In this document: positions 4,138 to 21,086 of the stretch, piece after piece
Numbering within the stretch: the first letter of the stretch is position 1
How the letters are laid out: every line of letters starts with the position of its first letter
NCBI GenBank assembly: GCA_964489445.1
Contig: CAZAYU010000001.1
Coordinates: forward strand, 4,394 to 68,393
Source of the DNA: an uncultured Planctomycetia bacterium
GTDB lineage: Bacteria > Omnitrophota > Gorgyraeia > Duberdicusellales > 4484-171
DNA: 64,000 bases
Direction: 5' to 3'
Notes under the pieces: generated by a model
Database searches by the model: none
What the model saw: only the letters and a program-made list of their open reading frames with translations
What the model was told of the DNA's origin: nothing
Position numbers and translations under genes: made by a program

Positions 4138-4154
4138 AAAAGGGGAGCATACGA

Positions 4155-4307: not shown

Positions 4308-4376
4308 CATAAAGATTTCTCATCCCGTGTTGCGGGATTCGAAATCCATTTTTCCTGATAATTTGCACAATAGAAA
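4308..4376. repeat. 69-bp direct repeat, copy 2 of 2, ending 4 nt before the tRNA-Ser 5' end
   Basis: Identical to 4155-4223. It contains small hairpins (CCCG-TGTTG-CGGG and GGATTCGAAATCC). Confidence 0.8.
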
Positions 4377-4379
4377 AAT

Positions 4380-4468
4380 GGAGGGGTGGCCGAGTCCGGT
4401 TTAAGGCGGCGGTCTTGAAAACCGTTGTGGGGTTAAACTCACCGGGGGTTCAAATCCTCTCCCCTCCG
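4380..4468 (+). tRNA. tRNA-Ser (anticodon TGA), type II with a long variable arm
   Basis: Acceptor stem GGAGGGG/CCCCTCC with discriminator G. D-arm GCC..GGC. Anticodon stem GCGGT/ACCGT around the loop CTTGAAA, giving anticodon TGA. Long variable arm. T-loop GTTCAAATC. Confidence 0.8.
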
Positions 4469-4487
4469 TTTTTATTTAAACATTTAA

Positions 4488-4520: not shown

Positions 4521-4572
4521 GTAATCATACAACAATAGTCAAAAATCACGACAAACTAATAGAGGGAGTATT

Positions 4573-5130: not shown

Positions 5131-5482
5131 GCAAAACATCCCATTAAATGATTATAACATTATTCTAGATGTATTTTATACATTAAGAGTTGCGAAACCT
5201 GTCCAATAATGTGCCCATTTCGTGCCCCAGAATACAAATGAAAAATTAGTTTGAGTCCTACGCGAGGAGTTTTTTTGAAAATCCGAACTTTTTATTGGAT
5301 TAGAAATAAGCCCCAGTTACAAAAATGTAGTTGAGGTTTTTTGTTTATTCAGGAATATGAGATTATATATATGCGATGGAATATTCTTTGATATAATATG
5401 GAGAAGTATTTTTGGGTTAGAATGCTAGCCCTATTATTAAAAGGGCGGTTCATGATCAGCCTCTACAAACGATGGAGAGAGT

Positions 5483-6382
5483 ATGAAACAACACAGAATC
5501 TTTAGGTTATTACTTTTAATAATTCTTTTGATGGGTGGGCTCGGACTTTCGCCTGTCCTTGCGCAGGCCGGTCCTCATCAGAACGTTGAGACGATCAAAA
5601 TAGCGGCCTCTGTTGATGGTATAGAGATCAATTATTATGAGTATGGGCAAAAGGGGCCAATACTCGTGTTCGTTCACGGATGGAGTTGCGACGCGAGCTA
5701 CTGGAGAGAGCAGGTCGAGTATTTCAAGGAGAAGTATCACGTGGTTCTGATCGATCTGGCTGGGCATGGTCGTTCTGGGAGTAAGCGTGAGAATTATACC
5801 ATGGAAGCTTTTGGCCAAGATGTGAAGGCTGTTGTCGAAAGTATCGGGACAGAGAAGGTGGTTTTGATCGGTCATTCCATGGGTGTCCTTGTGATCGCAG
5901 AGGCGGCCCGCTTGATGTCAGAGAAGACTATTGGATTGGTCGCGGTTGATGATCTTCAGAATGTGGAATATCCCCTGGGGGAAGAACAGTTCAAGGAGAT
6001 GACCACACCATTCAAAGAAGATTTCAAGCAAGGTGTAAGAGGTTTTGTTGTAGACATGCTGCGTTCTGATAACTCGCCGGTCAATGAATGGGTGGTCTCT
6101 GACATGTCTTTAGCTGACCCCAAGGTTGCGGTCAGTGCAATGAACGGATCATTAGGTGGGTATCTGACAGGTGATGTGGCCAAGTTGTTCGATGAGTTGG
6201 ATGTTCCGGTTGTGGCTGTGAACACCGACCTTTGGCCAACAGATGTCGAAGCGAACAGACGGCACATAAAGGACTTTGAACTGATCGAGTTGGACGGACT
6301 GGATCATTTTCTGATGCTTAAAGCGCCTGAGCGTTTTAACCCCGCGCTTGAACAAGCTGTTAAAATGATACTCAAGAAATAA
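5483..6382 (+). CDS. alpha/beta hydrolase fold protein with an N-terminal signal peptide
   Basis: Signal peptide LLLIILLMGGLGLSPVLAQA. HGW oxyanion region and GHSMG nucleophile elbow, with a C-terminal D..H pair. GC content is clearly higher than in the flanking DNA. Confidence 0.8.
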   Translation: MKQHRIFRLLLLIILLMGGLGLSPVLAQAGPHQNVETIKIAASVDGIEINYYEYGQKGPILVFVHGWSCDASYWREQVEYFKEKYHVVLIDLAGHGRSGSKRENYTMEAFGQDVKAVVESIGTEKVVLIGHSMGVLVIAEAARLMSEKTIGLVAVDDLQNVEYPLGEEQFKEMTTPFKEDFKQGVRGFVVDMLRSDNSPVNEWVVSDMSLADPKVAVSAMNGSLGGYLTGDVAKLFDELDVPVVAVNTDLWPTDVEANRRHIKDFELIELDGLDHFLMLKAPERFNPALEQAVKMILKK

Positions 6383-6422
6383 AAAAGAAAGCGCTTATGA
6401 GGTGGATATGAATAAGACAATG

Positions 6423-6445
6423 AAGGGGCCAGACCCCTTTTCTTG
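6423..6445 (+). terminator. rho-independent terminator after the alpha/beta hydrolase gene
   Basis: AAGGGG-CCAGA-CCCCTT hairpin followed by a T-rich run. Confidence 0.45.
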
Positions 6446-6547
6446 CATTAAACAATTTCACCTGACATTAATCGCTTTTCCCTTGATAATAACGTCAATA
6501 CGCTATAATCATTGATAGTAAAGGAGGATTGAGGAATGACCTAAAGG

Positions 6548-6567
6548 AATCCTCTCCCCTCCGTTTT
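6548..6567. repeat. 20-bp direct repeat of the tRNA-Ser 3' end (att-like)
   Basis: AATCCTCTCCCCTCCGTTTT is identical to 4453-4472, the last 16 nt of tRNA-Ser plus 4 nt of flank. Confidence 0.75.
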
Positions 6568-6640
6568 AATTTTTTCTTCGAAAAAAAGAAAACGGACCTC
6601 GAACGAAGTGAGAGGTCTTGTGAATCAACTTCTTCGAAAA

Positions 6641-7208
6641 AAGACAACGAATTCTGGCGAGACACCGCCCGAATCAGAGTCCGTAAAGATATTTTATCGA
6701 TATCCAGAGGCGAGAAGGTAAATAGCTTTTCACAATTTGCATCAATCCACCTCTTTAAAACGGCTAATTGTTCCATTGTTTTCTCGGTAATAACTATTTT
6801 CTAGGACCGTCAAAATTCCCGGTGTGAATTTTTCCTGGCACTTCAGTTTTAAAAATCTCTTCCCTTAACAGGTTCGAGATACCGTGCTTTTAAAGTCTCA
6901 GAGAGCCTCCTTTTAAAATTGTTATTGCCTCCAAGACGTGGGGGAAAGAATAGAGGGGTTAGTAGGACAGTAATTTGCGCATTAAATATACTCTTGTGTG
7001 TTCCTTAGATTTGATGTATATTTTTGTTAGGGTGCAATTAAGTAAGACGTTTGTGGTTTTCTGCTACTGTTTTTAAAATTAAAATAGATGAGTTGGTGGG
7101 GAGAAACAAGTAGGTTTCTGGTGGTAACTTTTTATGATAGGAGTTGCTTTTTATTTTTAAAAGGGGATTAGCAAAGGAAAAGTAAGGTGTACCTAAATAG
7201 GACATCTG
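6641..7208. repeat. Island repeat family, copy A. It lacks the left inverted-repeat end and finishes with the right-end motif GGTGTACCTAAATAGGACATCTG at 7186-7208.
   Basis: Shares blocks of about 330 bp (GAGTCCGTAAAGATATTTTATCGATATCCAGAGGCGAGA ... TTGATGTATATTTTTGTTAGGGTG) with copies at 8854-9110, 10968-11383 and 12572-12988. A degenerate internal right-end motif lies at 7031-7053. Confidence 0.8.
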
Positions 7209-7247
7209 TAGTATCACTAATAGGACAAGCGAAATAATTTAACTCAA

Positions 7248-8741
7248 TTGAAAAAACAAAAAGTTATATCCTTCCTTGTTGGTTTATTTTTTGTTATTTT
7301 ATGTCTTGAAACAGGACTAAGAATAGTCGGATGGATTTACCAAGATAAAACCAGAAATATTGATTTTCCAGCCACTAAGAAAGATGGTCAATACACCATA
7401 TTATGTTTGGGTGATTCCTTTACTTATGGATTAGGAGCCCCTGAAGGTAAAGACTACCCTAGACGACTGGAAGATCTACTTAAGACCAGGCTAAAAAAAG
7501 AAAAAATTAAAGTTATTAACTACGGTCGGGCAGGAAAAAACACAGCATACATTCTAGATAAGACGCAATATATTATAAATAAGCAAAAACCGGATTTAAT
7601 TATTTTTCTAGCAGGATCAGCCAATATTTGGGATTTATCCGGATATAAAACATATCTGGAAAAAATAAATTTTGCTTCATGGACACTTGAACAATTATAT
7701 AATCTTCGTATTTTTAAATTGATAAAACTTTCAATCTTAAACATAAAGAAGAATAAAGTAAATAAACTGCTTTTAAAAACTGACAAACACATCTCTGCTA
7801 ACTCGGAATTAAAAAATAGCGATATAAAATTTTTAAAGGGCCAAATAAAAAAATATCCAAATATAGGGGTTAACTACGCTAAACTGGGAAGGATCTACTT
7901 CAAACAAAACGATCCTGAAAAGGCTCTAACGTATTTCAAAAAAGGAATTGCTGCCGCCCCCAATACTATTGATAGCTACTACAACATGGGGCAAATCTAT
8001 CTTAGAATGCATAAAAGAGAAAAAGCATTGGAGTGGTTTAGAAAAACAGCTGTTTTGTTTCCAAATAATGCGAAAAATTGCACAATCATCGGACGGATTC
8101 TCAAGAATCAACAAAAATACCAAGAGGCAAGAGAATGGTTCAAAAAAGCACTAAAAATAAATCCAAAATCAGGGGAGGCTTATTGCGGTATGGCTTGGAC
8201 TTACGGACAAAATAGTGAGTTTGAAACAGCAATAGAATGGTTCAAAAAGGGAACTATTGCTGATCCAAACAGCATTGACAATTACTACGGTTTAGGACAA
8301 ATTTATCGTGCCCAGCATAAATATGATGAAGGACTAGCATTTTTCCAATCAGTCAATACAAAATGCTCGGAAGTAAAACAATTTATCAGAATTTTTGAAA
8401 AAAAAGAAAAATATACCCGTGAAATAACAAATTGGATAGAATCAGACACCCGAGGTATTATTGAGATATGCGTCAAAAACAATATTCCTATAATTTTACA
8501 AAATTATCCAGAAAAATACGAGGGGTTCGATTGGAGTAGTATTTTCAATAATATTGCCAAACAATACTCCCTTCCTATAGTAGACCAATATCAATCTTTT
8601 AATGAGTTATGGAAACAAGGAGAAAAAAGAGATGATTACTTTGTTCAAGACGGACATTGTAATGCTAAAGGATATGCTGCAATGGCAAAAAACGTATACG
8701 ATAAAATAATAGAATTAAAATTAATTGATAAACTTAATTAA
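7248..8741 (+). CDS. SGNH/GDSL hydrolase-family protein with an inserted TPR-repeat region
   Basis: N-terminal signal/TM segment then GDSFTYG (GDSL block I). TPR-like repeats occupy about aa 200-340. A C-terminal DGHCN (DxxH catalytic block) is present. The start is TTG at 7248 and the true start is uncertain. Confidence 0.65.
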   Translation: MKKQKVISFLVGLFFVILCLETGLRIVGWIYQDKTRNIDFPATKKDGQYTILCLGDSFTYGLGAPEGKDYPRRLEDLLKTRLKKEKIKVINYGRAGKNTAYILDKTQYIINKQKPDLIIFLAGSANIWDLSGYKTYLEKINFASWTLEQLYNLRIFKLIKLSILNIKKNKVNKLLLKTDKHISANSELKNSDIKFLKGQIKKYPNIGVNYAKLGRIYFKQNDPEKALTYFKKGIAAAPNTIDSYYNMGQIYLRMHKREKALEWFRKTAVLFPNNAKNCTIIGRILKNQQKYQEAREWFKKALKINPKSGEAYCGMAWTYGQNSEFETAIEWFKKGTIADPNSIDNYYGLGQIYRAQHKYDEGLAFFQSVNTKCSEVKQFIRIFEKKEKYTREITNWIESDTRGIIEICVKNNIPIILQNYPEKYEGFDWSSIFNNIAKQYSLPIVDQYQSFNELWKQGEKRDDYFVQDGHCNAKGYAAMAKNVYDKIIELKLIDKLN

Positions 8742-8853
8742 CAAAACTCACTATCCAAATACTCAAAATCTGATATACAATCATTTAACTACTTATCGTA
8801 TTCCATAAAAACATTATAATATCATTTGAAAAAGCCTTAAAACTGCTAAAATT

Positions 8854-9110
8854 AGATTTGCCAGACGTCCTATTTAGTACACCCTGCCATTAAAGACAAC
8901 GGACTCTGACGAGGCACCGCCACGAGTTAGAGTCCGTAAAGATATTTTATCGATATCCAGAGGCGAGAGGGTAAATAGCTTTTCACAATTTGCATTAATT
9001 CACCTCTTTAAAACGGCTAATTGTTCCATTGTTTTCTCGGTAATAACTATTTTCTAGGACCGTCAAAATTCCCGGCGTGAATTTTTCCTGGCACTTTGGC
9101 TTTAAATCTT
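8854..9110. repeat. Island repeat family, copy B. The left inverted-repeat motif is at 8862-8883 and the right half is truncated.
   Basis: Begins AGATTTGCCAGACGTCCTATTTA-GTACACC about 115 nt after the stop at 8741. Homology to copies A and D runs to about 9110, then diverges into a promoter-like sequence. Confidence 0.8.
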
Positions 9111-9112
9111 TC

Positions 9113-9141
9113 TTGACAGTTTTTTTGATCCGCGTTAGTAT
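9113..9141 (+). promoter_or_regulatory. sigma70-like promoter (TTGACA, 17-nt spacer, TAGTAT)
   Basis: TTGACA at 9113-9118, a 17-nt spacer, then TAGTAT at 9136-9141, about 110 nt upstream of the ATG at 9251. Confidence 0.5.
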
Positions 9142-9201
9142 ATAGTTAATTAGTTAAGTCCCGAGTTAGAGGAATAAATCCCGGACTTTAAAAAAGTAAA
9201 A

Positions 9202-9236
9202 CCTTCACTGGAAACGGTGAGGGATTTTTTATTTTT
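9202..9236 (+). terminator. leader hairpin plus T-tract (candidate attenuator) upstream of the TPR gene
   Basis: CCTTCAC-tggaaacg-GTGAGGG stem followed by GATTTTTTATTTTT. It ends 15 nt before the start codon at 9251. Confidence 0.45.
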
Positions 9237-9250
9237 AGGGAGATTTAAAC

Positions 9251-10924
9251 ATGAAGACAATTAAGTCATTTATTTTAATTCTAGTATTTTTTCTAATGGT
9301 TTTACCATCTGCATTTGCTAAGATTGAAGCCAATTTACTTAAACCACAAGATTTTCTTGGTGGACCTTCGAAAAAGCAAAAAATAAGAAAAACAATTACC
9401 AAACTTGAGCAAGCAATCAGCGAAGATCCAGATAACTATGAACTTTATGAGATGCTTGCTTTTGTTTGTGATCGGGGAAGGTTTTATGAAAAATCTCTGG
9501 AAGCACTTAAGCAGACGATAAAATATTATCCTGAAGGAGAAAAAGGGTTAGATATACTTTACGGAAATATTGCGAGAACATATATTATTCTTGATCGTTT
9601 AGATGAAGCCAAGCCGATTATTGATAAATCTTTAGAACTTAATTCTAAAAACATTGTTAACCATATAATTTTAGTAGAATACTATGTTTTAAAGAATAAG
9701 TATAAAGAAGCAGCCTTGGAATTAAAGCTGTTGACTGAACTTGATGAAACAGTAGATTTCTATCACGAGCTTTATGCTTCTAAGCTAGATAAGGGAGAGA
9801 AATATGATAACTTGGTAGCACTTTTTAGAGAAGCAGTTGCTGTTAATCCTGGAAGTCATTTATCGCATAGAACATTAGGGACAGCTATAAGAAATTCAGT
9901 AAATAATTTTGAGGAAAATTTTCCTTTGGCAATGGCGGAATACGAAAAAGCTTTGGAGATAGACCCAAAGTATTTACCCACATATATTAGCGTAGGTGAT
10001 GCCTATATGTTACTTGCCGTAAAAACAGAAAATAGAGAATATTTTGAGGATGCTTTAGCCTGGTTGAATAAAGGCAGTGAAATTGATCCTGGTAATGCAA
10101 GGATTGCCTATGTAATTGGTGAAGTATACTTTAGAATGGAAAATTACGATGAAGCTGCAAAGAAATTGGAATATGCTATAAATGAAGGGATAGATGAACC
10201 AAGGATAATTAATATGTTAGCAGTAGCCTGCAATAATAAAGCATATGCTTTATATGCCGAAGGAAAAAAATTAGATCAAGCTTTAGAATTAATAAATAAG
10301 GCACTCAGATTAAATCCAAAAGACGGAATTAGCTTAGGAACAAAAGCGGAGATTTTGTATAAGCTGGAAAGGTATGAAGAAGCTTATGAATATATTAAAA
10401 GAGCTTTGGTCTTAGAACCAGACTATGAAGAAATGAAGCAAGATTTAGTGAATATTGAAGAGGCTATGAAGTGGGATACTGGTAAAGAAGCCCGAGAAAT
10501 TGCCATTGAGAAAGGTATTCTACCGAAGAATATAGATGAAGCAGTTATTAAAGATTTGCTTGAAAGAAAAGATGTTCTTTCGCTATGGTTGATAGCCGAT
10601 AGATTGAAAAAAATTAGGATAGTAGATCGCATGAAAGCATTAGCCTATGAAGATGGAGTAATCATTAGGAGTCATTCGGAGTATTACGTAGAAGAGATTA
10701 ATAAAGGTCTTTACACCTCAATAAAAAACGAAGATAAGCACAACAACATGGCTAATCCAGTAGAATTTGTTTTTAAACTTATTGCGCTTGAACAAGGAGA
10801 TTACGATAATGGTATGGGTAAAGTAGAAGCGCTCAGAGATTATGCTGGAGATGAGCTGTTTGAGTGGTATAAAACGATGTGTCCAAAGAAGTATCAGTAT
10901 TTAGTTGAGATGGATAAACAATAG
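9251..10924 (+). CDS. TPR-repeat protein with an N-terminal signal peptide
   Basis: Signal peptide FILILVFFLMVLPSAFA. Multiple TPR-like helical repeats with periodic Y/A/L and E/D/P residues. Confidence 0.7.
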   Translation: MKTIKSFILILVFFLMVLPSAFAKIEANLLKPQDFLGGPSKKQKIRKTITKLEQAISEDPDNYELYEMLAFVCDRGRFYEKSLEALKQTIKYYPEGEKGLDILYGNIARTYIILDRLDEAKPIIDKSLELNSKNIVNHIILVEYYVLKNKYKEAALELKLLTELDETVDFYHELYASKLDKGEKYDNLVALFREAVAVNPGSHLSHRTLGTAIRNSVNNFEENFPLAMAEYEKALEIDPKYLPTYISVGDAYMLLAVKTENREYFEDALAWLNKGSEIDPGNARIAYVIGEVYFRMENYDEAAKKLEYAINEGIDEPRIINMLAVACNNKAYALYAEGKKLDQALELINKALRLNPKDGISLGTKAEILYKLERYEEAYEYIKRALVLEPDYEEMKQDLVNIEEAMKWDTGKEAREIAIEKGILPKNIDEAVIKDLLERKDVLSLWLIADRLKKIRIVDRMKALAYEDGVIIRSHSEYYVEEINKGLYTSIKNEDKHNNMANPVEFVFKLIALEQGDYDNGMGKVEALRDYAGDELFEWYKTMCPKKYQYLVEMDKQ

Positions 10925-10967
10925 AGGGTTGCTTTGGGCCATAAGTAAAAGGCTGTGGATGATCTAG

Positions 10968-11383
10968 TGACCAGGCGTCCTATTTGGGTACACCCTGCTA
11001 CCATGACAAAACCTAAGTAATATCCACGCTAAAAATAGCTTGAAGTTATCGTTTAGAAACATACACTGTGGATAAGAGGGAAAATGCAAGAAACAAGACT
11101 TGACCACGTTTTTCCATTCAGCAATAACTAATTTCTAAGGATCGGTAAAATTCCCGGCGTGAATTTTTCCTGGCACTTCAGTTTTAAAAATCTCTCGCCC
11201 TAACAGGCTCAAGATACCATGCTTTTAAAGCTTCAGAGCCTCCTTTTAAAATTGTTATTGCCTCAAGGTGCAATTTCCTCTTTAAATATACTCTTGTGTG
11301 TTTCTTAGATTTGATGTATATTTTGATTATGTGTCTAGGATATATTATTGAGTTTAGTAAGGTGTACCTAAATAGAACGACTG
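10968..11383. repeat. Island repeat family, copy C. Both ends are present (left motif 10971-10992, right motif 11361-11383) and the left internal half is a variant.
   Basis: CCAGGCGTCCTATTTGGGTACACCC lies 45 nt after the stop at 10924. The right two-thirds is shared with copies A and D. The right end is GGTGTACCTAAATAGAACGACTG. Confidence 0.8.
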
Positions 11384-11452
11384 TAGATAGTTAAATTTGC
11401 CTAATAGGGTGGAGAGCAAAGTGTTTGAACCCTATTAGGGACACTATTAACC

Positions 11453-12019
11453 ATGAATATAGCAAAGCTTGATGCTGCTAAGCGACAGTTAGATACTGCT
11501 ATCAATTTATTTTTTAAAGAAGCTGACTCAGTTTCAATGCATACCCTAACTGCTGCTGCTCATCAAATATTAATGGATTTAGCTAAATTAAAAGGGGCAA
11601 TGTCTTTTATAAAAACCCCGACACTGATTAAAAAGGAAATGCAGAAAAAATATCTTTATGTGATTAATGAAGCAGAAAATTTTTTTAAACATGCAGCAAA
11701 AGATTCAGATAAATTATTGGAATTTAATCCTGAACAGACTGAATTTTTATTGTTAGATGCGGTGGAAATGTATACGCAATTAACCAAGGAAGCCCCTGAA
11801 GATATGTCTATATATAGAATGTGGTTTTTCATAAAACATCCTGAAATTATTAGCGATGAAACTCGTAAGGGAATAGAGGCTAAAAACCTTAGCATTCAAA
11901 AATACAGGGCGATGCATAAGCTAAAATTTTACACAAAGATGAAAGACTCTTTTATGTATAGGGCGGAGAACAAAGTGTTCAAGTCCTATTCGGGAATTTT
12001 ATTTTATGATTATTTGTGA
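11453..12019 (+). CDS. hypothetical protein (188 aa)
   Basis: Intact ORF with no recognisable family by eye. A remnant of a homologous 3' coding end lies just upstream at 11404-11443. Confidence 0.5.
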   Translation: MNIAKLDAAKRQLDTAINLFFKEADSVSMHTLTAAAHQILMDLAKLKGAMSFIKTPTLIKKEMQKKYLYVINEAENFFKHAAKDSDKLLEFNPEQTEFLLLDAVEMYTQLTKEAPEDMSIYRMWFFIKHPEIISDETRKGIEAKNLSIQKYRAMHKLKFYTKMKDSFMYRAENKVFKSYSGILFYDYL

Positions 12020-12571: not shown

Positions 12572-12988
12572 AGATTTGCCAGACGTCCTATTTGGGTACA
12601 CCCTGCTACTAAAGACAATGAATTCTGACGAGGCTCTGTCCAATTCAGAGTCCGTAAAGATATTTTATCGATATCCAGAGGCGAGAGGGTAAATAGCTTT
12701 TCGCAATTTGCATCATCACCCCACTAAAACGGTTAATTATTCCATTGTTTTTTCGGCAATAACTAATTTCTAAGGATCGGTAAAATTCCCAGCGCGAATT
12801 TTTCCTGGCACTTCAGTTTTAAAAATCTCTCACCTTAACAGGCTTAAGATACCATGCTTTTAAAGCTTCAGAGCCTCCTTTTAAAATTGTTATTGCCTCA
12901 AGGTGCAATTTCCTCTTTAAATATAATCTTGTGTGTTTCTTATATTTGATGTATATTTTTGTTAGGGTGTACTCAAATAAGACGTTTG
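12572..12988. repeat. Island repeat family, copy D, full length. Left motif at 12580-12602 and a degenerate right motif at 12966-12988.
   Basis: AGATTTGCCAGACGTCCTATTTGGGTACACCCTGCTACTAAAGACAATGAATTCTGACGAGGC... lies 16 nt after the stop at 12556. Collinear with copy A over about 400 bp. Confidence 0.85.
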
Positions 12989-13026
12989 TGGTTTTTGTCT
13001 AATATTAATCAAAATGGAGGTATCTT

Positions 13027-13374
13027 ATGAATGATGTAAAAGATATGATAGAAAAAATTAAAAAATTTAGAGATGATAGGGACTGGATGCAATTCCATGA
13101 CCCCAAGAATATGGCTGTTTCAATAATTTTAGAAGCTTCCGAGCTACTAGAACATTTCCAATGGAAGACTATTAAAGAAGTAGATGAATGCGCAAAACAA
13201 AATCAAGATGAGATTCAAGATGAAATTGCTGACATCGCTTTATATCTTTTTGAGATGGCAGATAATTTAGGAATAGACTTAATTAAAGCCATGGAAAAAA
13301 AGTTAGCAAAAAATGAAAAAAAATATCCAGTAAGCAAGGCTCGGGGGAAACATACTAAATACAATAGACTATGA
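13027..13374 (+). CDS. MazG-like nucleotide pyrophosphohydrolase
   Basis: RBS GGAGG. All-alpha MazG/HisE-type signature: DWMQFHDPKNMAVSIILEASELLEHFQWK ... EIADIALYLFEMAD. Confidence 0.75.
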   Translation: MNDVKDMIEKIKKFRDDRDWMQFHDPKNMAVSIILEASELLEHFQWKTIKEVDECAKQNQDEIQDEIADIALYLFEMADNLGIDLIKAMEKKLAKNEKKYPVSKARGKHTKYNRL

Positions 13375-15755
13375 TAGTTTACAGTAGTACAGTCAAAAAG
13401 TTTATTAATGATATTTGTGAGAATAGAATTGATGAAGAAATTGATAGATCTTGCTTAAAAGCTCTTGGGCGTAGCTTTTTAAAGAGGGAAGGAAAAGCGT
13501 GGCGTAATTCTTTAGGATATATGGAAAGGGTTGTCCAAAAGGCCGACCTACCCGATGATTGCGGTGTTTTGATAGAGTACACTATTCCATCAACATTCAA
13601 GCGAATTGATTTTATTGTTTCTGGCAAAGACGAGCAAGGTAATAACAACTTTATTATCGTTGAGTTGAAGCAGTGGGAAACAGCTTCAAGTACCCATAAG
13701 GATTCAGTTGTCACTACTTTGTTGGGAGGTTGTCCTAATTGCGAAACTACACACCCATCGTATCAAGCTTATTCATACAAGATGTTTATGAAAGATTTTA
13801 ATGAAAATGTTTACAAAGGTAGTTTGTTGCCTTTTTCGTGTGCTTACCTTCATAATTACATTGAAGGGAATCCGGAGCCTTTGAGAGAAGAGGCATACGA
13901 AGAAATAGTTTCTGATACCCCGGTATTTTTTAAGCATGATAGCGAAAAGTTATCTAATTTTCTTAAAAAACACGTTGGCAAAGGTTTTGGCGAGACTATC
14001 TTGTATGAAATCGAAGCGGGTAGAATTCGTCCTAGTAGGAAGCTGATAGATCATGTTTGTGAAATGTTTAAAGGTAATAAATCGTTTATATTGATTGATG
14101 ATCAAAAAATTGCTTACGAGAAAGCAGTCGACTCAGCATTGCATGCTACAAAAAAATCAGTTTTAATAATAAAAGGTGGACCAGGAACGGGTAAGTCCGT
14201 TATTTCGATGAATGTTTTGGGCGGTATTTTAAGCGGTGAAAAGAATGTTGCTTTTGTCGCGCCTAATGCGTCATTTAGAAATGTTTTGCTTCAAAGTCTA
14301 GCGAAAGAGAATAAGTCCGCAAGGATTAAGCATTTGTTCAAAGGTTCGGCTTGTTTCCATGATGTGGAGCAGCATACCTATGATGTTTTGATTGTGGATG
14401 AAGCTCATCGATTAAAAAACAAATCAGCATATCAATATCAAGGCGATAATCAGGTTGAGGATTTAATTAAGTCGTCTTTTGTTACTATTTTCTTTATTGA
14501 TGATAACCAAAGGATTAGGCCTGAAGATATCGGAACGGTAGAGGAGCTAAAACGTGTAGCAAGTAAATACACTGCTAACGTTGAGGTGATTGAACTCACA
14601 GCTCAATTTAGATGTTCTGGCACGGAAGGCTATGTCAATTGGCTAGATGATGTTTTGCATATCCGGCAAACTGCTAATTATGATGGATGGAATCAGAAAG
14701 AGTTTGATTTTAAAATTTGTGCTACACCGCAAGAGTTACATTCGAGAATAAAACAGAAAAATCATGAAAGATTTAACGCTAGAATGTTAGCAGGGTATGC
14801 ATGGAGTTGGACCGCTAAGGATGAAGGTAACAATAACGCTCAGGCAAATGATGTGAATATAGATGAACACGGTTTTGCTTTGCCCTGGAATTCTAGATCA
14901 ATGCGTACAAGCTGGGCGATTGAAAAAGACGGAGTTAATCAGGTTGGTTGCATTCATACCTCGCAGGGCTTAGAGTTTGACTATGTTGGGGTTATTGTCG
15001 GCAAAGATTTAGTTTTTAACTCAGATAATTGCGAATATTCGGCAGATTGGCAAAACTACAAAGATATGGCGGGTAAGAAGGGGCTGAGAGAAGATCTTGC
15101 ACAATTGAGCGTACTTATAAGAAACATTTATAAAACATTAATGACACGTGGAATGAGGGGGTGTTATGTCTATTTTTGTGATAAAAATGTAGAGCACTAT
15201 TTTAAACAAAGGTTAGATACTGTTACACAAAGCAAAAAATTAGTGCTTTCCGATATTGTTCCTGAAAAAGATCAGTTAACAACCGAACAAGATATCGCAG
15301 ATAGGTTGAAGTATACAGAATATTTACCAGTTTATTCTCTTGAAGCAGCTGCGGGTAAGTTTGGCGAAGGCATGGATACATATGAAAATGGCTGGATAAA
15401 AACTAACATTAATAAAAAATTAAATAAATGCATGTTTGTAATTAAAGTAGTTGGCCATTCAATGGAGCCATTAATACCAGATAATAGCTATTGTATTTTC
15501 AGAACAGGTGTTGAAGGAACGAGAAATAATAAAATAGTTTTAGTTCAACATCAAGGTATTGCCGATAGCGATACTAGTGGAAAATATACAGTCAAAAAGT
15601 ATAGCAGTAAGAAAACATCTAAGGATGATGGCGATGCTTGGGAACATGAGGAGATAATACTTTCACCTTTAAATGGTGATTATGAGCCAATGGTTATAAA
15701 AAATTCTGAGGAAGGGGACTTCAAAGTTATTGCTGAATTCATTACAGTGCTTTGA
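13371..15755 (+). CDS. fusion protein: PD-(D/E)xK-like nuclease motif, DUF2075/Schlafen-like P-loop ATPase, LexA-type S24 peptidase domain
   Basis: ATGA start/stop overlap with the MazG-like ORF. N-terminus has RIDFIVSG...IIVELKQW, a D...E-x-K nuclease motif. Walker A is GGPGTGKSV and Walker B/DEAH-like is LIVDEAHRL. C-terminus has LEAAAG-KFGEG (candidate Ala-Gly autocleavage site), VGHSMEP (G-x-S-M nucleophile motif of LexA/UmuD) and KYTVKKY (catalytic Lys region). Confidence 0.75.
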   Translation: MIVYSSTVKKFINDICENRIDEEIDRSCLKALGRSFLKREGKAWRNSLGYMERVVQKADLPDDCGVLIEYTIPSTFKRIDFIVSGKDEQGNNNFIIVELKQWETASSTHKDSVVTTLLGGCPNCETTHPSYQAYSYKMFMKDFNENVYKGSLLPFSCAYLHNYIEGNPEPLREEAYEEIVSDTPVFFKHDSEKLSNFLKKHVGKGFGETILYEIEAGRIRPSRKLIDHVCEMFKGNKSFILIDDQKIAYEKAVDSALHATKKSVLIIKGGPGTGKSVISMNVLGGILSGEKNVAFVAPNASFRNVLLQSLAKENKSARIKHLFKGSACFHDVEQHTYDVLIVDEAHRLKNKSAYQYQGDNQVEDLIKSSFVTIFFIDDNQRIRPEDIGTVEELKRVASKYTANVEVIELTAQFRCSGTEGYVNWLDDVLHIRQTANYDGWNQKEFDFKICATPQELHSRIKQKNHERFNARMLAGYAWSWTAKDEGNNNAQANDVNIDEHGFALPWNSRSMRTSWAIEKDGVNQVGCIHTSQGLEFDYVGVIVGKDLVFNSDNCEYSADWQNYKDMAGKKGLREDLAQLSVLIRNIYKTLMTRGMRGCYVYFCDKNVEHYFKQRLDTVTQSKKLVLSDIVPEKDQLTTEQDIADRLKYTEYLPVYSLEAAAGKFGEGMDTYENGWIKTNINKKLNKCMFVIKVVGHSMEPLIPDNSYCIFRTGVEGTRNNKIVLVQHQGIADSDTSGKYTVKKYSSKKTSKDDGDAWEHEEIILSPLNGDYEPMVIKNSEEGDFKVIAEFITVL

Positions 15756-15793: not shown

Positions 15794-15825
15794 AATTACC
15801 AGACGTCCTATTTAGGTGCACCCTA
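15794..15825. repeat. solo copy of the island-repeat left-end motif
   Basis: AATTACCAGACGTCCTATTTAGGTGCACCCTA lies 38 nt after the stop at 15755, in the same orientation as the other copies. Confidence 0.75.
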
Positions 15826-15915
15826 CAAAAAATAACACCTTTTTTAATTAAATTTAATCTCTTTTTGGTTTCTAGTTTGCTTTAAATCTTGGAATACTTA
15901 AAGCAAATTGCTTTA

Positions 15916-15962: not shown

Positions 15963-17546
15963 ATGAAAGATAGCTCAAAACGAATAATTTGTAGCATTTT
16001 AGCCTTCCAGCTATTCTGTTTTAATCAACACGCCATAGCCTATGCGGCCACCCAGATTACAAAAAAAACAAAAGCCCCTAGGATTCGTATTTATGATGCT
16101 CCGGATGCTGAAAATAAATTCTACAAAGGGGATTTTGACGGTGCAGCATTTATCTTTGATGCCTTAGGACAAAAGAAAGATAAAAATTTCGCCCTTTTTA
16201 ATAATCAATTAGGCTCTATATATTTAGCTAAAGGTGATTACGAAAAAGCCTTAGACTCTTTTCTTAAAGCCTATTATCTAATGAATGATATATCAGCTTT
16301 TACGAATTTAGAATCAGGGTCTGTTTCTTTATTCGGTAGTGAGGCAAAAAAGGCTTATAAGGGCGATCCTTATGAAAAGGTTTTTAATTCTTTATATGTT
16401 GGCCTACTGCTTGCAGACAAAGGGGATTTTGATAATGCGCTGGCAGCTTTTAAAAATGGAATATTGTGTGATTCTGACGTAGCAGCAGAGCTATACCGAA
16501 GTGACGTTTTTTCATTATATCTTTTTGCGGCTAGATTTACTTTAAAGCAAAATAATCCATCATTAAGTAAAGATTATTTTAATAAGGCCATAGAGGCTTA
16601 TCGTTTAGCATCTCCTTTAAATAGTTCCCTGGTCTCGCAAGAGCAGGCATTAGTTACTTTATTGTATGAAAAACAAGAGGAGTTTGAAAAGCTAGAAAAC
16701 ACCGGAGAACTTTCTAAGCCAGGAAATAATGAAGGCATGTTTGTTTCAGGATCTGACAATGGCTCCAATGAGAATAAAGGAACGGAAAAAGTCTATGGCA
16801 AAAAAACACTTGAAAAGATGGAAGTACTTTCTGGGGAAATAGGAGAACTTGACAAAAATATAAAAAATCTATCAAGCCAAAGAGAAGAGAACAACAGAAA
16901 TATAGATATTTCTATTCTTAAGCCATTTATCGACTTAGAAAATAACACATTTTTATGTCTTGAGATTGGACGAGGACCACTAAAATACCAAATTGGCCAG
17001 TATGGTCAATTAGCGGTATTTACTGTTAAGCCTCACGGGATCAACGCGGTTAAAATTTTTGTAGACGATAAAGAAGTGAATACGAATTTGCTTTCGTCAA
17101 ATAATGATGTTTTTTTTCAGGCAACAACAAGAGGCGGAAGAGAAATGGATAGTATTCTTAAAGGACAAGCTAAGTTTAAGCAAACTACAGCCGAGACGTC
17201 TTTAGCGTTTATTCGAACGTCACAAAATATGCAAAACCAGGCTAACCAGATGGCTTCGACAAACCCTAACTATGATGCATCAGGACAGTATGCCGCAGCA
17301 GGAGTGATAGCCTTAGCCGGCCTTATAATAGCGTTAACGAGTGCAGCAGCTAATCCTGTTGCAGATGTAAGACATTGGAGCCTTTTGCCGGGAAACATGG
17401 TTATTTTACCTTTTTCTTTAGGGTCCGGTACACATAGTATTAAAATCGAGTGTTATAATAATGAGTCTACTCTTTCGGATAGTTTGGAACTTGGCATTAA
17501 TGTAAGAGAGGACAAAGATAATTTTATATTTAAAAGAATTTTTTAG
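15963..17546 (+). CDS. hypothetical secreted protein with an N-terminal TPR-like region
   Basis: Signal peptide ILAFQLFCFNQHAIAYAA, TPR-like helical N-terminal half, and a C-terminal region with a hydrophobic segment (AAAGVIALAGLIIALT). Confidence 0.55.
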   Translation: MKDSSKRIICSILAFQLFCFNQHAIAYAATQITKKTKAPRIRIYDAPDAENKFYKGDFDGAAFIFDALGQKKDKNFALFNNQLGSIYLAKGDYEKALDSFLKAYYLMNDISAFTNLESGSVSLFGSEAKKAYKGDPYEKVFNSLYVGLLLADKGDFDNALAAFKNGILCDSDVAAELYRSDVFSLYLFAARFTLKQNNPSLSKDYFNKAIEAYRLASPLNSSLVSQEQALVTLLYEKQEEFEKLENTGELSKPGNNEGMFVSGSDNGSNENKGTEKVYGKKTLEKMEVLSGEIGELDKNIKNLSSQREENNRNIDISILKPFIDLENNTFLCLEIGRGPLKYQIGQYGQLAVFTVKPHGINAVKIFVDDKEVNTNLLSSNNDVFFQATTRGGREMDSILKGQAKFKQTTAETSLAFIRTSQNMQNQANQMASTNPNYDASGQYAAAGVIALAGLIIALTSAAANPVADVRHWSLLPGNMVILPFSLGSGTHSIKIECYNNESTLSDSLELGINVREDKDNFIFKRIF

Positions 17547-17556
17547 ATTATAAAAA

Positions 17557-18120
17557 ATGGTAACTATGGGAAAGAAGTCAGTTGTAGTTTTGTTGTTAAT
17601 TAGTTGTTTATTCTTTGCTGGATGTGCAAACGGCCGAATTCTATTGAGAAAAGGACAAAAAGAGCTAAAGCTAGATACCGATGAGGGCGGTGTGATCTTT
17701 TCTCTGGCAATTGTCGGATCTGCTACCTTTGCCCCCCATAGTATAACAATACAAGAAATAAACCAGTACAAGGAATACACAAAGAAGAAACTTGAAAGTA
17801 TACCGCTTGTCGATGCATCAGACAATCTGTATTTGTATCATTTAAAGCTTCCCAACGGAACTTACAGATTAGTTTCATTCTATGGTTGGCTTGGTGGATT
17901 TTTTGGAAAGTATCAATTTATGCCTTGTGATAAAATATTTGATGTTCCAGCCGAGGAAATCACCTATTTGGGAAGAATTGAGACAAATATATATTCTCAA
18001 GGTAATTCTTGGAATAATGAAATATTAGTGTTAGATTATTACAAAGAAGATACTAAAGCTTTCTTGGGTAAGTATCCAATACTAACGGAGCAAAAAATTA
18101 ATAAAGATTTGTTCTATTAA
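17557..18120 (+). CDS. hypothetical lipoprotein
   Basis: Lipobox LFFAGC near the N-terminus. Operon-like spacing, 10 nt after the preceding gene. Confidence 0.55.
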   Translation: MVTMGKKSVVVLLLISCLFFAGCANGRILLRKGQKELKLDTDEGGVIFSLAIVGSATFAPHSITIQEINQYKEYTKKKLESIPLVDASDNLYLYHLKLPNGTYRLVSFYGWLGGFFGKYQFMPCDKIFDVPAEEITYLGRIETNIYSQGNSWNNEILVLDYYKEDTKAFLGKYPILTEQKINKDLFY

Positions 18121-18135
18121 AAAAGGAAGGTAACT

Positions 18136-18732
18136 ATGAAAAGAACTGTTCTACTTGCAATCGTATGTGTTTTTTGTTCTGCTTGTGCAACCGGTCCGCA
18201 TTCTGTTTCACATTCAACGACAGTGCTGCCTGATTCCGATGACGGCTTAGGCGGAACCGGAATTGAAGCCACAGATGTTAGAACTGTTGCCAGAAAAATG
18301 GCTGTCTCAATATTAGATGTCCCAGAAATAATGAATGCTTCGGGTATGCCTCGTATAGTACTATTGCCGGTTGAAAATTCTACACGTTTCATTATCAATA
18401 AGGATATTTTTACGAAAAAGATAAGAATAGAGTTAAATAAAAACGCTACAGGCAAAGTCAGATTTTTAGCCCGAGCAAGAATTGAAGACATCATGAAAGA
18501 AAGAGAAGCAAAAAGAGAAGGAGTATTTACAGCTAGCAAAGAGGCTGACATGTTGGGGGTGGATTTCTATTTAACCGGAGAGCTAACCGGATTAAGCAAG
18601 GCTAGTAAAGGACATCGTTCGGACTATATTTTAATGGCATTTCAGTTAATTGATGCTGAAACAAGTGACATTATTTGGGAAGATGCCTATGAGATTAAAA
18701 GAGTGGGTATTACTGGTGTAGCTTATCAATAA
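18136..18732 (+). CDS. lipoprotein with an LpoB/CsgG-like fold
   Basis: RBS AAGGAAGG. Lipobox FCSACAT. Resembles the LpoB/CsgG family (...VARKMAVSILD ... VDFYLTGELTGL). Confidence 0.55.
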   Translation: MKRTVLLAIVCVFCSACATGPHSVSHSTTVLPDSDDGLGGTGIEATDVRTVARKMAVSILDVPEIMNASGMPRIVLLPVENSTRFIINKDIFTKKIRIELNKNATGKVRFLARARIEDIMKEREAKREGVFTASKEADMLGVDFYLTGELTGLSKASKGHRSDYILMAFQLIDAETSDIIWEDAYEIKRVGITGVAYQ

Positions 18733-18760
18733 GCAATAAGTATTAAAAAAGGAGAAAGTA

Positions 18761-19183
18761 GTGATTAATAAAATTATAGCTTTATCAGTAGTTGTTTTAG
18801 CTGTAAGTGGTTGTGCTGCCGGCCCATATAAGGCCGTTAGATATGATACTTCAAAAGATTTAGAACGCCAATCTAACGTTGTTATCATGGACAAAAGCCT
18901 TAGTAACCAATTTTCAAGAAAACGAATTGTTATAGTTGGCGAAAAATCAGAGTGGACTCAGGACAATCGACTAAAGGTGTATTGTGAAATTAAGAATATG
19001 AAAAAAGATTTATTAAGACTCCAAGTCCAGACTGTATTTAAAGACCAAAATGATTTTTCAATTGAGTCAGACACAAACTGGGAATTAATTCTTGTTTCAG
19101 GATTTTCTAGTTATGCATATACTACTGTAGCTTTAAACGACAAAGCGAAAAAATACACGATAAGAATAAAATTGGCTGAATAA
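18761..19183 (+). CDS. small lipoprotein (YcfL/DUF1425-like size and context)
   Basis: GTG start with RBS AAGGAGAAAG. Lipobox AVSGCAAG. 140 aa. Confidence 0.5.
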   Translation: MINKIIALSVVVLAVSGCAAGPYKAVRYDTSKDLERQSNVVIMDKSLSNQFSRKRIVIVGEKSEWTQDNRLKVYCEIKNMKKDLLRLQVQTVFKDQNDFSIESDTNWELILVSGFSSYAYTTVALNDKAKKYTIRIKLAE

Positions 19184-19200
19184 TCGGAGAAGGTGAGAAA

Positions 19201-20808
19201 ATGAAAAAAATTAAATACCCATTCTTGATAATGTTTTGGGTTGTAACTTGCTTGTTTTTAGGAAGTTTTGTTTTGGTACCTCACAGCTATTGCGAAGATG
19301 AGGCTAAATTTATATATAACCAAAAACCAATAAAGAAAGTCAAAGAAAAAAATTTAAAGGTACGAGTAGCAATTTCAAGGTTTGATGAAAAAATTGATAT
19401 AGAAGAAAGCCCGTTTAATGAGCGTGAAGATAAAAAAGATGGGGACAGCGCACTAATTGAAATAAAAGATTCTGATGTAAAAATAACCATTGATGAAGAT
19501 GAGGATAAAGATGAAATATCTAAAGGAGAATTCTTAACAGGATTGATTACTAGTGCATTGCAGAAAACAGAGTTATTCGAAGTAGTTGAAAGAAGAGATA
19601 TCAATGAGATTATCCGCGAGATTAATTTCCAAAATTCAAAATGGGTTAAAAGTGATGGCGCGAATGCGCTTGGTAATATTTATGATGTGCAATATATATT
19701 AAATGGGGATCTTCTCCGTAATAAAGAGGGAGAGAAAATCGGTAAACATTATTACACTTTGGCTTTGCGAATGTATAATGTTAATACCGGTGGAATTGTG
19801 TCTTCTTCAACCATCAGCTCTCCATACTTAGAAGAAGCTGTTAGCAATGCAGTGGTTGATTTATCAAAGCAAATTAAAAAAAAACCATGGACATGTAGAA
19901 TAGTTGGGATCAACGATAGTAGGATCTATATTAATGCTGGATTAAAGGATGGTTTGGAAAAACGTGATGTTTTTTATGTGTATCGGGTTGAAGGGGAAAT
20001 TATTGATCCTAAAACTAAGGAAGTTTTAGGGCTGGAGAAAAAGAAAATTGCCAGAATAGAAATTCAAGAAGTGTTAGAAGCTAAACTATCTCAAGTAAAA
20101 GTTATAGAAATATATGATGAAATAAAAGTAGGTGATACTGTTTCAGCAGACAGAATTAATAAAGATAAACAATCCGAGTTAGAGCTATGGAAGAAGATCT
20201 ATAAAGGCAGCGATATCTCTGGTGATAAATTAAGCAAATATTCATTTATCTCTGAAGGTTATTCGCCAGAAGATATTATGACAAATTTTGGAAAAGCTAT
20301 TGTTAAGATACAAGCTGGAACATCGATGGGAAGTGGTTTTATTGTAGATGTAGAAGGCCATATTCTTACCAATTTTCATATAGTCCAAAATGCTACAGTT
20401 ATATCGGCAAAAATGATAGAAAAAAATCAGAATTTCAATAACGTGAAAGTTATAAAAGTCGACCCAGTTAAAGACATAGCCTTGTTAAAAATTGATAATG
20501 CTAATAGTTTGCCAATTGTTGTATTGGGTGACTCAGACAGGCTAAGCGTTGGAGAAAGAGTAGTTGCAATCGGAAATCCACAGGGTTTAGAAAATACCAT
20601 CTCCGATGGCTTAATAAGTGGAATAAGAGAAAACGATGGGGTCAAGCTTATACAGACAAGCGTTCCAGTGACTCATGGCAGTAGCGGAGGACCATTATTT
20701 AATATGCAAGGTGAAGTCATCGGTATAGTAACAGCAGGAATCAAAGAAGCTGGAAATCTTAACTTTGCAGTGCCTATCAATTACGCTAAAGATGAACTTT
20801 TGAATTAG
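19201..20808 (+). CDS. secreted two-domain protein: CsgG/LpoB-like domain plus trypsin-like (S1) serine peptidase
   Basis: RBS GGAGAAGG. N-terminal signal/TM segment. First half has a CsgG-like motif (GEFLTGLITSALQKTELFEVVERRDINEIIRE...YILNGDL). C-terminal half has the His/Asp/Ser triad contexts TNFHIV, DIALLKI and GSSGGPLFN. Confidence 0.7.
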   Translation: MKKIKYPFLIMFWVVTCLFLGSFVLVPHSYCEDEAKFIYNQKPIKKVKEKNLKVRVAISRFDEKIDIEESPFNEREDKKDGDSALIEIKDSDVKITIDEDEDKDEISKGEFLTGLITSALQKTELFEVVERRDINEIIREINFQNSKWVKSDGANALGNIYDVQYILNGDLLRNKEGEKIGKHYYTLALRMYNVNTGGIVSSSTISSPYLEEAVSNAVVDLSKQIKKKPWTCRIVGINDSRIYINAGLKDGLEKRDVFYVYRVEGEIIDPKTKEVLGLEKKKIARIEIQEVLEAKLSQVKVIEIYDEIKVGDTVSADRINKDKQSELELWKKIYKGSDISGDKLSKYSFISEGYSPEDIMTNFGKAIVKIQAGTSMGSGFIVDVEGHILTNFHIVQNATVISAKMIEKNQNFNNVKVIKVDPVKDIALLKIDNANSLPIVVLGDSDRLSVGERVVAIGNPQGLENTISDGLISGIRENDGVKLIQTSVPVTHGSSGGPLFNMQGEVIGIVTAGIKEAGNLNFAVPINYAKDELLN

Positions 20809-20820
20809 TCTACTGTGTAA

Positions 20821-20852
20821 AATTACCAGACGTCCTATTTAGGTACACCCCA
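20821..20852. repeat. solo copy of the island-repeat left-end motif
   Basis: AATTACCAGACGTCCTATTTAGGTACACCCCA lies 12 nt after the stop at 20808, in the same orientation as the other copies. Confidence 0.75.
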
Positions 20853-21086
20853 GAAAGAATAATTGGTTAAATTGATCCCGCCGAGTTGAGAAAAATTATC
20901 AAATTCAGCCTAATTCAATATTTCTTATTAAATAGTAATTCTTAACCTTGTATGTTTCTTAATCGTATCTATTTAAATACATTTGTGTTATACTTAAACC
21001 CATTAAAATTTAAGGATTGAGTGCCTGTGATGCTCAATTTTACGCTCTTTTGCATTTTGAAAAATATCTCCAATAAAGAGGAAAAT

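Follow-up and report, generated by a model that had tools for sequence, protein, structure and literature searches.

The 64,000-nt window analysed here (contig CAZAYU010000001.1 of assembly GCA_964489445.1, positions 4,394 to 68,393) comes from an uncultured Planctomycetia bacterium that GTDB places in the Omnitrophota; all coordinates below are those of the window. It carries a pair of overlapping genes on the forward strand. The first encodes a small nucleoside triphosphate (NTP) pyrophosphatase, and the second a protein that joins a nuclease, a helicase and a LexA/UmuD-type S24 module in one chain. An earlier reading made from the sequence alone (the original prediction) had proposed the pair as an undescribed defence or SOS-sensing module. 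The genes and the features within them are as follows.

13016..13020, + strand: GGAGG ribosome-binding site, separated by 6 nt from the gene 1 ATG, read from the sequence
13027..13374, + strand: gene 1, 115 aa, all-alpha NTP pyrophosphatase of the DCTPP1/RS21-C6 type
13371..13374, + strand: ATGA stop/start overlap of genes 1 and 2
13371..15755, + strand: gene 2, 794 aa, nuclease-helicase-S24 fusion
13371..14090, + strand: N-terminal PD-(D/E)xK nuclease domain, aa 1-240
13608-13610, 13662-13664 and 13668-13670, + strand: candidate nuclease residues D80, E98 and K100, respectively
14154..15182, + strand: Schlafen group 3/DUF2075 superfamily 1B (SF1B) helicase, aa 262-604 (PF09848, 6.1e-93)
14175-14201, + strand: Walker A motif GGPGTGKSV, aa 269-277
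14397-14408, + strand: DEAH, within LIVDEAHRL, aa 340-348
15249..15320, + strand: flexible linker between helicase and S24 module, about aa 627-650; the predicted local distance difference test score (pLDDT) is <50 for residues 619-635
15321..15752, + strand: LexA/UmuD-type S24 module (PF00717) including the cleavage-site strand, aa 651-794
15351..15356, + strand: predicted scissile bond Ala661-Gly662, in AAAG, aligned with LexA Ala84-Gly85 and UmuD Cys24-Gly25
15459..15461, + strand: predicted nucleophile Ser697, in GHSMEP, aligned with LexA Ser119
15594..15596, + strand: predicted general base Lys742, in TVKKY, aligned with LexA Lys156

Both open reading frames (ORFs) are intact, and every motif quoted for them in the original prediction was found where it had been placed. 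The 4-nt ATGA overlap suggests that the pyrophosphatase and helicase genes are translationally coupled. No terminator was found when the operon was scanned, promoter-like sites occurred at background frequency, and folding of the spacer downstream of the operon revealed no structure. An identical copy of the 794-aa protein is encoded on 15 contigs from several metagenomes, each time in the same context; hence this is a stable gene of a real population. The AlphaFold2 model of the protein has a mean pLDDT of 80.7. As single sequences, the full 794-aa protein and its S24 tail gave no matches to solved structures and profiles were needed; the multi-sequence tests below used profiles of 30 partner proteins and of 17 S24 tails.

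The N-terminal domain of the 794-aa protein includes the motifs RIDFIVSG (aa 78-85) and IIVELKQW (aa 95-102), and its α-β-β-β-α-β core, with D in strand 2 and (D/E)xK in strand 3, is that of the PD-(D/E)xK superfamily. The nuclease identity proposed for it is upheld, and its structural neighbours include HamA and Hna. The central P-loop ATPase matches PF09848 (SLFN-g3_helicase, the former DUF2075) over the whole Pfam profile, and GGPGTGKS and DEAH are invariant among the aligned family members. A Foldseek search with the helicase domain returned SLFN11, RecD, RecD2, Dna2 and Dda with E values from 5e-11 to 9e-9, the best match being SLFN11 (7zel, 5.5e-11). Given these top structural matches, the centre of gene 2 is an SF1B helicase. 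Pfam and Foldseek agree in assigning it to the accessory Schlafen group 3/DUF2075 enzymes, not to a housekeeping helicase family.

A core of this kind is known. Nhi (Staphylococcus epidermidis SERP2475; Bari et al.) and Nhi-like (Millman et al. 2022) are validated single-protein anti-phage nuclease-helicases. As here, their N-terminal PD-(D/E)xK-type nuclease precedes, on the same chain, an SF1B helicase of the DUF2075 family (PF09848); the likeness to Nhi-like is one of shared domain organisation only. The PADLOC model for Nhi spans only aa 237-485 of the protein described here (profile positions 179-394 of 470, 2.6e-13) and leaves the N-terminal domain unmatched. Thus, the architecture is alike, but no full-length homology to Nhi was found and membership is not supported. 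Furthermore, Nhi and Nhi-like are described as stand-alone proteins, whereas the protein encoded here has a partner gene of the DCTPP1 type and a C-terminal S24 module, neither of which is mentioned for Nhi in the papers searched.

The C-terminus of gene 2 had been described in the original prediction as a complete S24 module with an Ala-Gly bond, a Ser and a Lys, and this description was borne out. PF00717 (Peptidase_S24) matches aa 653-789 at 3e-10, with 40.2 bits against a cut-off of 23.3 bits, and the three motifs lie at aa 659-663 (AAAGK), 695-700 (GHSMEP) and 738-744 (KYTVKKY). In the alignment, AAAG pairs with VAAG of LexA and VQCG of UmuD, GHSMEP with GMSM of LexA, and TVKKY with TVKRL of LexA. 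A search of solved structures with the profile of 17 tails served as an independent check of this alignment; it found LexA at 9.3e-9 and UmuD at 7.9e-7 in the same register as the pairwise alignment. LexA, UmuD and lambda CI thus have in common with the tail PF00717, an Ala/Cys-Gly bond 35-36 residues before the Ser, and a Ser-Lys dyad. They differ in that their S24 domain is carried on a small DNA-binding domain (LexA and CI) or a short N-terminal arm (UmuD), whereas here it is carried on a 650-aa enzyme.

At least three flavours of S24 tail were distinguished among the fusion proteins. The first, that of the protein in the window (the query), has SMEP or SMN and an insertion of 8 residues before the Lys, such that the distance from Ser to Lys is 45 residues compared with 37. 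The second is compact and LexA-like, with GDSMN. In the third, Ser and Lys are kept and the scissile Gly is replaced by N, T, D or S (RAVAN, RAVAT, TVAD). The existence of this sizeable subgroup, which retains the domain, might indicate that the tail serves for dimerisation or for docking on RecA filaments, bringing the enzyme to RecA on single-stranded DNA (ssDNA) with or without residual catalysis. S24 domains are indeed known to dimerise and to bind the groove of the RecA filament, and tails of the query type carry insertions of at least 8 residues relative to LexA. However, Ser and Lys are invariant in every aligned tail, those of the Gly-less subgroup included, and (A/C)-G lies exactly 36 residues from Ser in the query and LexA-like types, as in nearly all fusion tails (36 in UmuD and 35 in LexA). 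The invariant dyad and the fixed spacing point to selection for catalysis and for the cleavage site, and a non-cleaving role for the domain is considered very unlikely.

Apart from the fusions themselves, the proteins closest to the query-type tail are about 260 aa long and combine S24 with an HTH or DUF3037 domain, and the tail itself matches PHROG 4, 'transcriptional repressor', at 1.6e-14. Given these small relatives, the tail looks borrowed from a LexA/CI-like regulator. The possibility that it is a promiscuous sensor common to many effectors was also considered and set aside, as a search limited by its word index gave mostly fragments of the fusion and small HTH-S24/DUF3037-S24 proteins.

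The family to which the core belongs is large. A word-indexed search with the 794-aa protein gave 6,900 matches, and an exhaustive one yielded 5,492 cluster representatives (E ≤1e-3), of which 777 reach ≤1e-30. Most close relatives are 613-625 aa long, have no S24 module and are 55-60% identical to the query core. Among the 150 cluster representatives nearest to the query, 23 or more have an S24 tail (about 15-20% of close relatives). When 185,579 species were scanned, each through a single genome, at least 321 relatives were confirmed; of the best 80 loci, which were examined further, 16 encode an S24 tail. In a crude neighbour-joining tree of the cores, drawn without support values, the S24 forms fall into at least six clusters that are interleaved with S24-less forms. 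This interleaving suggests that S24 has been repeatedly gained, lost or swapped. One of the loci, in Halomonas sp. PA16-9 (NZ_CP040452.1, 5920-8853 of the extracted locus), has the helicase core (5920-7980) and the S24 tail (7911-8390) in overlapping ORFs, which suggests a frameshift, and its MazG-like ORF (8590-8853) is downstream of the helicase rather than upstream.

The 115-aa product of gene 1 had been assigned to the all-alpha MazG/HisE group. Its two signature motifs, EASELLEHFQWK and EIADIALYLFEMAD, are both present, and it matches the MazG-like family PF12643 at 1.4e-20 (73.8 bits against a cut-off of 27 bits). However, the classical MazG model PF03819 scored 18.4 bits, below its cut-off of 22 bits, and the NCBIfam MazG equivalog 16.5 bits against the 208 required. 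Over its full length, the profile of 30 partners matched PDB entry 4qgp (8.9e-33) and DCTPP1/RS21-C6 (9e-31), and dimeric dUTPases, YpjD and MazZ scored far more poorly. The four acidic metal ligands, E36, E39, E66 and D69 (ExxE...ExxD), are shared with 4qgp and DCTPP1, E66 and D69 being invariant among the partners and E36 and E39 nearly so; a C-terminal KYT(E/D)L motif is also shared. In addition, the protein matches PHROG 3301, 'pyrophosphatase', at 1.7e-19. The all-alpha assignment therefore stands, MazG proper does not, and on these profile matches the protein is best called a DCTPP1-type dCTP pyrophosphatase. We infer that dCTP or 5-modified dCTPs are its substrate. It differs from DCTPP1, a pool-sanitising enzyme, in that it is prokaryotic and is linked in an operon to a nuclease-helicase, and in that its substrate is a predicted one.

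The two genes were expected to be conserved together, and this was found to be so. With a MazG-like profile built from short ORFs only, a DCTPP1-type ORF with the same orientation was detected directly upstream of the helicase gene at 47 of the 76 loci that could be tested, and in 20 of these 47 the two genes share a 4-nt overlap. Exceptions are a partner fused in frame, one located downstream and one that is divergent (one locus each); including two special cases, the count is 49 of 77 loci. The in-frame case is found in an Ignavibacteria metagenome-assembled genome (MAG; JADJWZ010000023.1, 5671-7704 of the locus), where the MazG-like domain occupies aa 32-103 of a single ORF with the nuclease-helicase. 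This joined ORF may be a true gene fusion, or it may come from an assembly error of 1 nt where the genes normally overlap by 4 nt. No other neighbouring gene is conserved, the next most frequent cluster occurring in 9 of the 80 loci and mostly reflecting synteny in Paenibacillus. Because no gene besides the partner recurs near the helicase, the module is self-contained, with one or two genes.

Bacterial members among the best 80 loci are from Omnitrophota, the candidate phyla radiation (CPR/Patescibacteria), Paenibacillus, Cohnella, Clostridia, Negativicutes, Spirochaetes, Ignavibacteria, Gammaproteobacteria and Elusimicrobia, and two lineages of archaea are also represented. The distribution is patchy, with 40-60% identity across phyla, and includes copies on plasmids of bacteria and archaea and occasional phage copies. 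Four matches were found in 50,697 phage records, including a record of Microcystis phage Mwe-JY31 that contains the pair, and only about four full-length relatives, none with S24, were confirmed in the 2.9 million viral contigs of IMG/VR. The phage and plasmid copies, together with the MazG-like pyrophosphatases that phages often encode (PHROGs 3301 and 715), could be taken to mean that the pair is a weapon with which a phage or plasmid degrades the DNA of a competitor or host and reshapes the nucleotide pool. The scarcity of viral copies makes this highly improbable; moreover, the majority of copies are on chromosomes, and near the module in the window there are neither phage nor plasmid genes.

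Evidence that the core takes part in biological conflict comes from its other fusions and from its neighbours. In other proteins the core, alignable over residues 1 to about 617, is joined to a TIR_2 domain at the C-terminus, to an N6_Mtase or a PNP_UDP_1 domain at the N-terminus, or to a second, PIF1-like helicase (cluster representatives P0515, P0500, P0499 and P0443 of the exhaustive search). These fusions were not found in the literature searched. PADLOC analysis of 148 immediate neighbours gave strong matches, as raw counts, to BrxL, HamB, MkoC, PDC-S34 (two), PDC-M26A (two), PDC-S69 and a type II methylase. Several XRE/C-protein-like regulators are also among these neighbours, and Pfam identified McrB-N-like, PLD and HsdR-N domains. 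On plasmid NZ_CP083270.1 of Priestia aryabhattai, the pair lies between genes for a restriction endonuclease, a type I restriction-modification system, a restriction-associated ATPase and an ABC-3C protein.

At the same Priestia locus (4548-5941), the first 4 nt of the pyrophosphatase gene are shared with a DUF3578 (McrB-N-like) gene, which makes a three-gene operon possible, and the restriction-rich island also encodes MutT. In a separate case, the Omnitrophota MAG GCA_043826565.1 has a homologue of the pair with 72% identity, followed directly by a paralogous DUF2075 helicase gene (8410-10413; 667 aa) that matches the PADLOC candidate PDC-S41 at 1e-285, and then by a NUDIX gene, the second ORF interval being 10498-10926. 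This locus may represent a larger composite system. PDC-S41, to which the helicase core in the window is related by a partial match, has neither an S24 module nor a DCTPP1-type partner.

In the window, the module lies just upstream of a five-gene envelope operon (15963-20808, + strand) that encodes a TPR lipoprotein, a protein of about 185 aa, an LpoB-like protein, a DUF1425 protein and a CsgG/LpoB-trypsin fusion. The operon is conserved across Omnitrophota; the slot directly before it differs between relatives and is occupied by accessory genes. A conserved gene flanking the module has homologues only in Omnitrophota, the closest named one being in Ca. Susulua stagnicola (71%), and this assigns the host to that phylum. 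The slot is occupied by Fic, a RelE toxin-antitoxin pair and RecQ in one Omnitrophota relative, and by a Schlafen-AlbA_2 and HATPase_c_4 pair in another. The latter pair was observed in 52%-related Omnitrophota (JGI 3300035043, 279-1669 of the locus, and 3300035525) about 2 kb upstream of the envelope operon, with a small ORF and a TPR gene in between, in the same variable region as the module. The conflict or defence role suggested by the original prediction is thus backed by the TIR, N6-methylase and PNP fusions, by the defence-island contexts elsewhere and by this variable slot.

The same domains could also belong to genome maintenance. In that case the fusion would act in repair, as a nuclease-helicase tuned by SOS and comparable to Dna2, RecD2 or AddAB. 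It would be processed on RecA filaments like UmuD, and the partner would keep modified dCTP out of repair synthesis. The resemblance of the helicase to RecD, RecD2 and Dna2, the S24 domain as the classic SOS sensor and DCTPP1 as a pool sanitiser are all compatible with such a role, as are the occurrence of the pair in small-genome CPR bacteria, the ordinary neighbours in the window and MutT at the Priestia plasmid locus. It is difficult to reconcile, however, with a patchy family of at least 321 relatives in 185,579 species and the identity levels given above across phyla, with the plasmid and occasional phage copies, and with a slot that holds toxin-antitoxin and Fic genes in relatives. The immune-type fusions and the BrxL, HamB, MkoC and restriction-modification neighbours are likewise typical of conflict systems. 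A repair function is therefore quite unlikely. If the protein were nevertheless a repair factor, it would represent a so far unrecognised nuclease-helicase linked to SOS, with a wide distribution in CPR bacteria and Firmicutes.

Other systems that combine a nuclease with a helicase are Hachiman (HamAB), Hna and AbpAB, which also include PD-(D/E)xK domains and for which phage single-stranded-DNA-binding protein (SSB), ssDNA or DNA damage are the triggers (PMC10732053). They differ from the module in having SF2 helicases and in having no built-in S24 domain and no DCTPP1-type partner. Human SLFN11, which gave the best structural match to the helicase domain and shares PF09848, has an N-terminal Schlafen tRNA nuclease instead of PD-(D/E)xK, and has no S24 domain or pyrophosphatase partner. 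Mammalian DUF2075 Schlafens are described as acting in the DNA-damage response and in the killing of replication-defective cells (PMC6765204), and this behaviour would parallel the fusion of a sensor of ssDNA or damage to the bacterial enzyme. For MazG-like domains, a role as dNTP-targeting effectors has been predicted in another system (bioRxiv 10.64898/2026.01.15.699771).

Within the literature searched, which left most subscription-journal papers outside, no paper joined DUF2075 with MazG and none described a defence effector with an S24 fusion. DUF2075 is not mentioned with MazG or S24 in a domain-centric defence-discovery paper or in a nuclease-NTPase preprint, and recent papers on bacterial Schlafens deal with the AlbA_2 RNase domain, not the group-3 helicase, and do not mention MazG, S24 or LexA. 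The proposal that the combination is undescribed thus holds in part: the nuclease-DUF2075 core is already known from Nhi and Nhi-like, and the putative self-cleaving switch and DCTPP1-type partner appear to be new additions to it.

Taken together, the domain content and the company of the genes favour a self-contained, horizontally mobile two-gene conflict module, most likely anti-phage in function, in which an Nhi-like effector would be gated by self-cleavage and its partner would target the dCTP pool. We regard this reading as having roughly an even chance of being correct. RecA-coated ssDNA is the expected trigger of an S24 module, and high pH also stimulates S24 self-cleavage. In resting cells, the S24 domain would hold the enzyme latent, probably by dimerising or by occluding it. 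Phage replication or DNA damage would then produce RecA-coated ssDNA, on which the Ser697/Lys742 dyad would cleave Ala661-Gly662. Cleavage would free a nuclease-helicase of about 661 aa, which would unwind and degrade DNA. Meanwhile, the gene 1 pyrophosphatase would hydrolyse dCTP or 5-modified dCTPs, and this hydrolysis would either starve phage DNA synthesis or block the phage from making modified, nuclease-resistant DNA. A 5-modified dCTP target is attractive because McrB-N-like readers are occasionally adjacent and DUF2075 NTPases have been reported beside modification-dependent restriction enzymes (PMC6765204). A RecA-ssDNA trigger would fit the responses of nuclease-helicase defences to phage SSB, ssDNA and DNA damage (PMC10732053).

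The direction of the switch was weighed separately. Homologues without S24 stop at about 613-625 aa, that is, where the linker of the fusion starts; hence the cleavage product would resemble a natural free-standing enzyme. This resemblance is the main argument for activation by cleavage. The S24-less homologues are the majority and are presumably active, and a cleaved product like them argues for activation or neutrality. Conversely, the nuclease-helicase may be restriction-like and always competent, with S24 cleavage during the SOS response disabling it, for instance through the disruption of an active dimer, and so sparing RecA-coated repair intermediates of the host. Cleavage inactivates LexA and CI, by parting the functional domain from the dimerisation domain, and the closest kin of the tail are the regulator-like HTH-S24 and DUF3037-S24 proteins and PHROG 4. 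Nuclease-helicase defences also answer ssDNA or damage intermediates and are thus potentially dangerous to the host during repair. However, UmuD is a precedent for activation by cleavage, and with the S24-less majority taken into account the opposite switch is judged unlikely, though a rival to be taken seriously.

Several observations weigh against an anti-phage module that is activated by cleavage. PADLOC-DB 2.0 has no full-length model that matches either protein; partial matches were obtained for the helicase core (PDC-S41, 1.6e-18; AbiO, 1.6e-14; and Nhi, at the value given above) and none for the pyrophosphatase. In the window itself, the module lies among envelope and TPR genes and not in a defence island, and the tallies of defence genes among the neighbours elsewhere are raw counts. 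About one third of the loci have no pyrophosphatase and about 80-85% of close relatives have no S24, so neither is needed for core function and both are optional additions to a self-sufficient core. The Gly-less tails do not fit simple LexA-like self-cleavage, and the tree on which the S24 forms appear interleaved is a crude one. The relatives of the partner in the DCTPP1 group are eukaryotic housekeeping sanitisers of the nucleotide pool, which also fits a repair role. Finally, cleavage inactivates LexA and CI and activates UmuD, so that there is precedent for a switch in either direction.

A more specific form of the preferred reading can be proposed only tentatively, and it is possible rather than probable. 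The fusion would be a Schlafen-group-3 immune enzyme with a LexA-like sensor, which cleavage of Ala661-Gly662 triggered by RecA-ssDNA would unleash post-translationally, with no change in transcription, and the DCTPP1-type enzyme would join in the attack on the dCTP or modified-dCTP pool. If this is true, it would be the first immune effector gated directly by S24 autoproteolysis, and a prokaryotic counterpart of the sensing of damage or ssDNA by mammalian DUF2075 Schlafens such as SLFN11.

For Nhi, Hna, Hachiman and AbpAB, the available evidence on the sensing of infection favours phage SSB, ssDNA intermediates and DNA damage as signals (PMC10732053). The family described here is a natural experiment in this respect, as it includes one effector core with and without a built-in LexA-type sensor. 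Sensing by S24 is also tractable, since Ser-to-Ala, Lys-to-Ala and Gly-to-Asp mutants, RecA filaments and high pH are standard tools for it. Should cleavage prove to gate activity, there would be a direct post-translational path from the SOS signal to an immune effector. A DCTPP1-type partner would bring a new kind of nucleotide-pool enzyme to defence, possibly against phages with modified cytosine. Mammalian Schlafens, which are described as responsive to damage and replication defects (PMC6765204), have the helicase domain in common with the fusion, and this extends its interest beyond bacteria.

The module is bracketed by copies of a dispersed repeat, which are context and not part of it. 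Copies in this part of the window are as follows.

~6603-7211: repeat copy
8856-9114: repeat copy, truncated
~10966-11386: repeat copy
12574..12991, no strand assigned: repeat copy upstream of the module, ~420 nt, non-coding, with inverted 23-27-nt termini
15794..15835, no strand assigned: solo repeat terminus, 40 nt after the gene 2 stop
20821-20862: second solo terminus, after an unrelated operon

The repeat units are 420-620 nt long with inverted termini of 23-27 nt (CAGACGTCCTATTTRGGTRCACC) and lie, full or truncated, in four successive intergenic spaces. The 23-nt terminus has six matches in the window within 3 mismatches compared with none expected, which is far beyond chance. The bracket of the original prediction is real insofar as there is a repeat copy around 12574-12991 and a solo motif at 15800-15822. 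However, it does not mark the border of a mobile cargo, as the copies are dispersed, flank TPR, 188-aa/Yip1 and envelope genes besides the module, and have no recombinase nearby. Neither an integrase nor a transposase was found in the region, the repeat has no match in Rfam, and it is absent from the syntenic loci of relatives. The family recurs in 42 unrelated metagenome stretches, which derive from many samples and in which its copies often form inverted pairs with 50-800 nt between them. It behaves like a dispersed family of the MITE (miniature inverted-repeat transposable element) type. An interpretation of the repeats as integron cassettes with attC sites was rejected in view of the length of the units, the inverted termini, the lack of an integrase nearby and the lack of an Rfam match.

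Between two of the repeat copies and upstream of the Yip1-like gene is the 188-aa ORF (11453-12019, + strand), for which no Pfam or PHROG match was found. An integrative island linked to a tRNA gene was considered and rejected, as tRNA-Ser (4379-4469) is followed by GNAT and hydrolase genes and by no recombinase. Immediately upstream of this tRNA-Ser(TGA) gene is an 87-nt direct repeat with 91% identity between its copies (4137-4223 and 4290-4376), which could be a duplicated leader or a partial tRNA.

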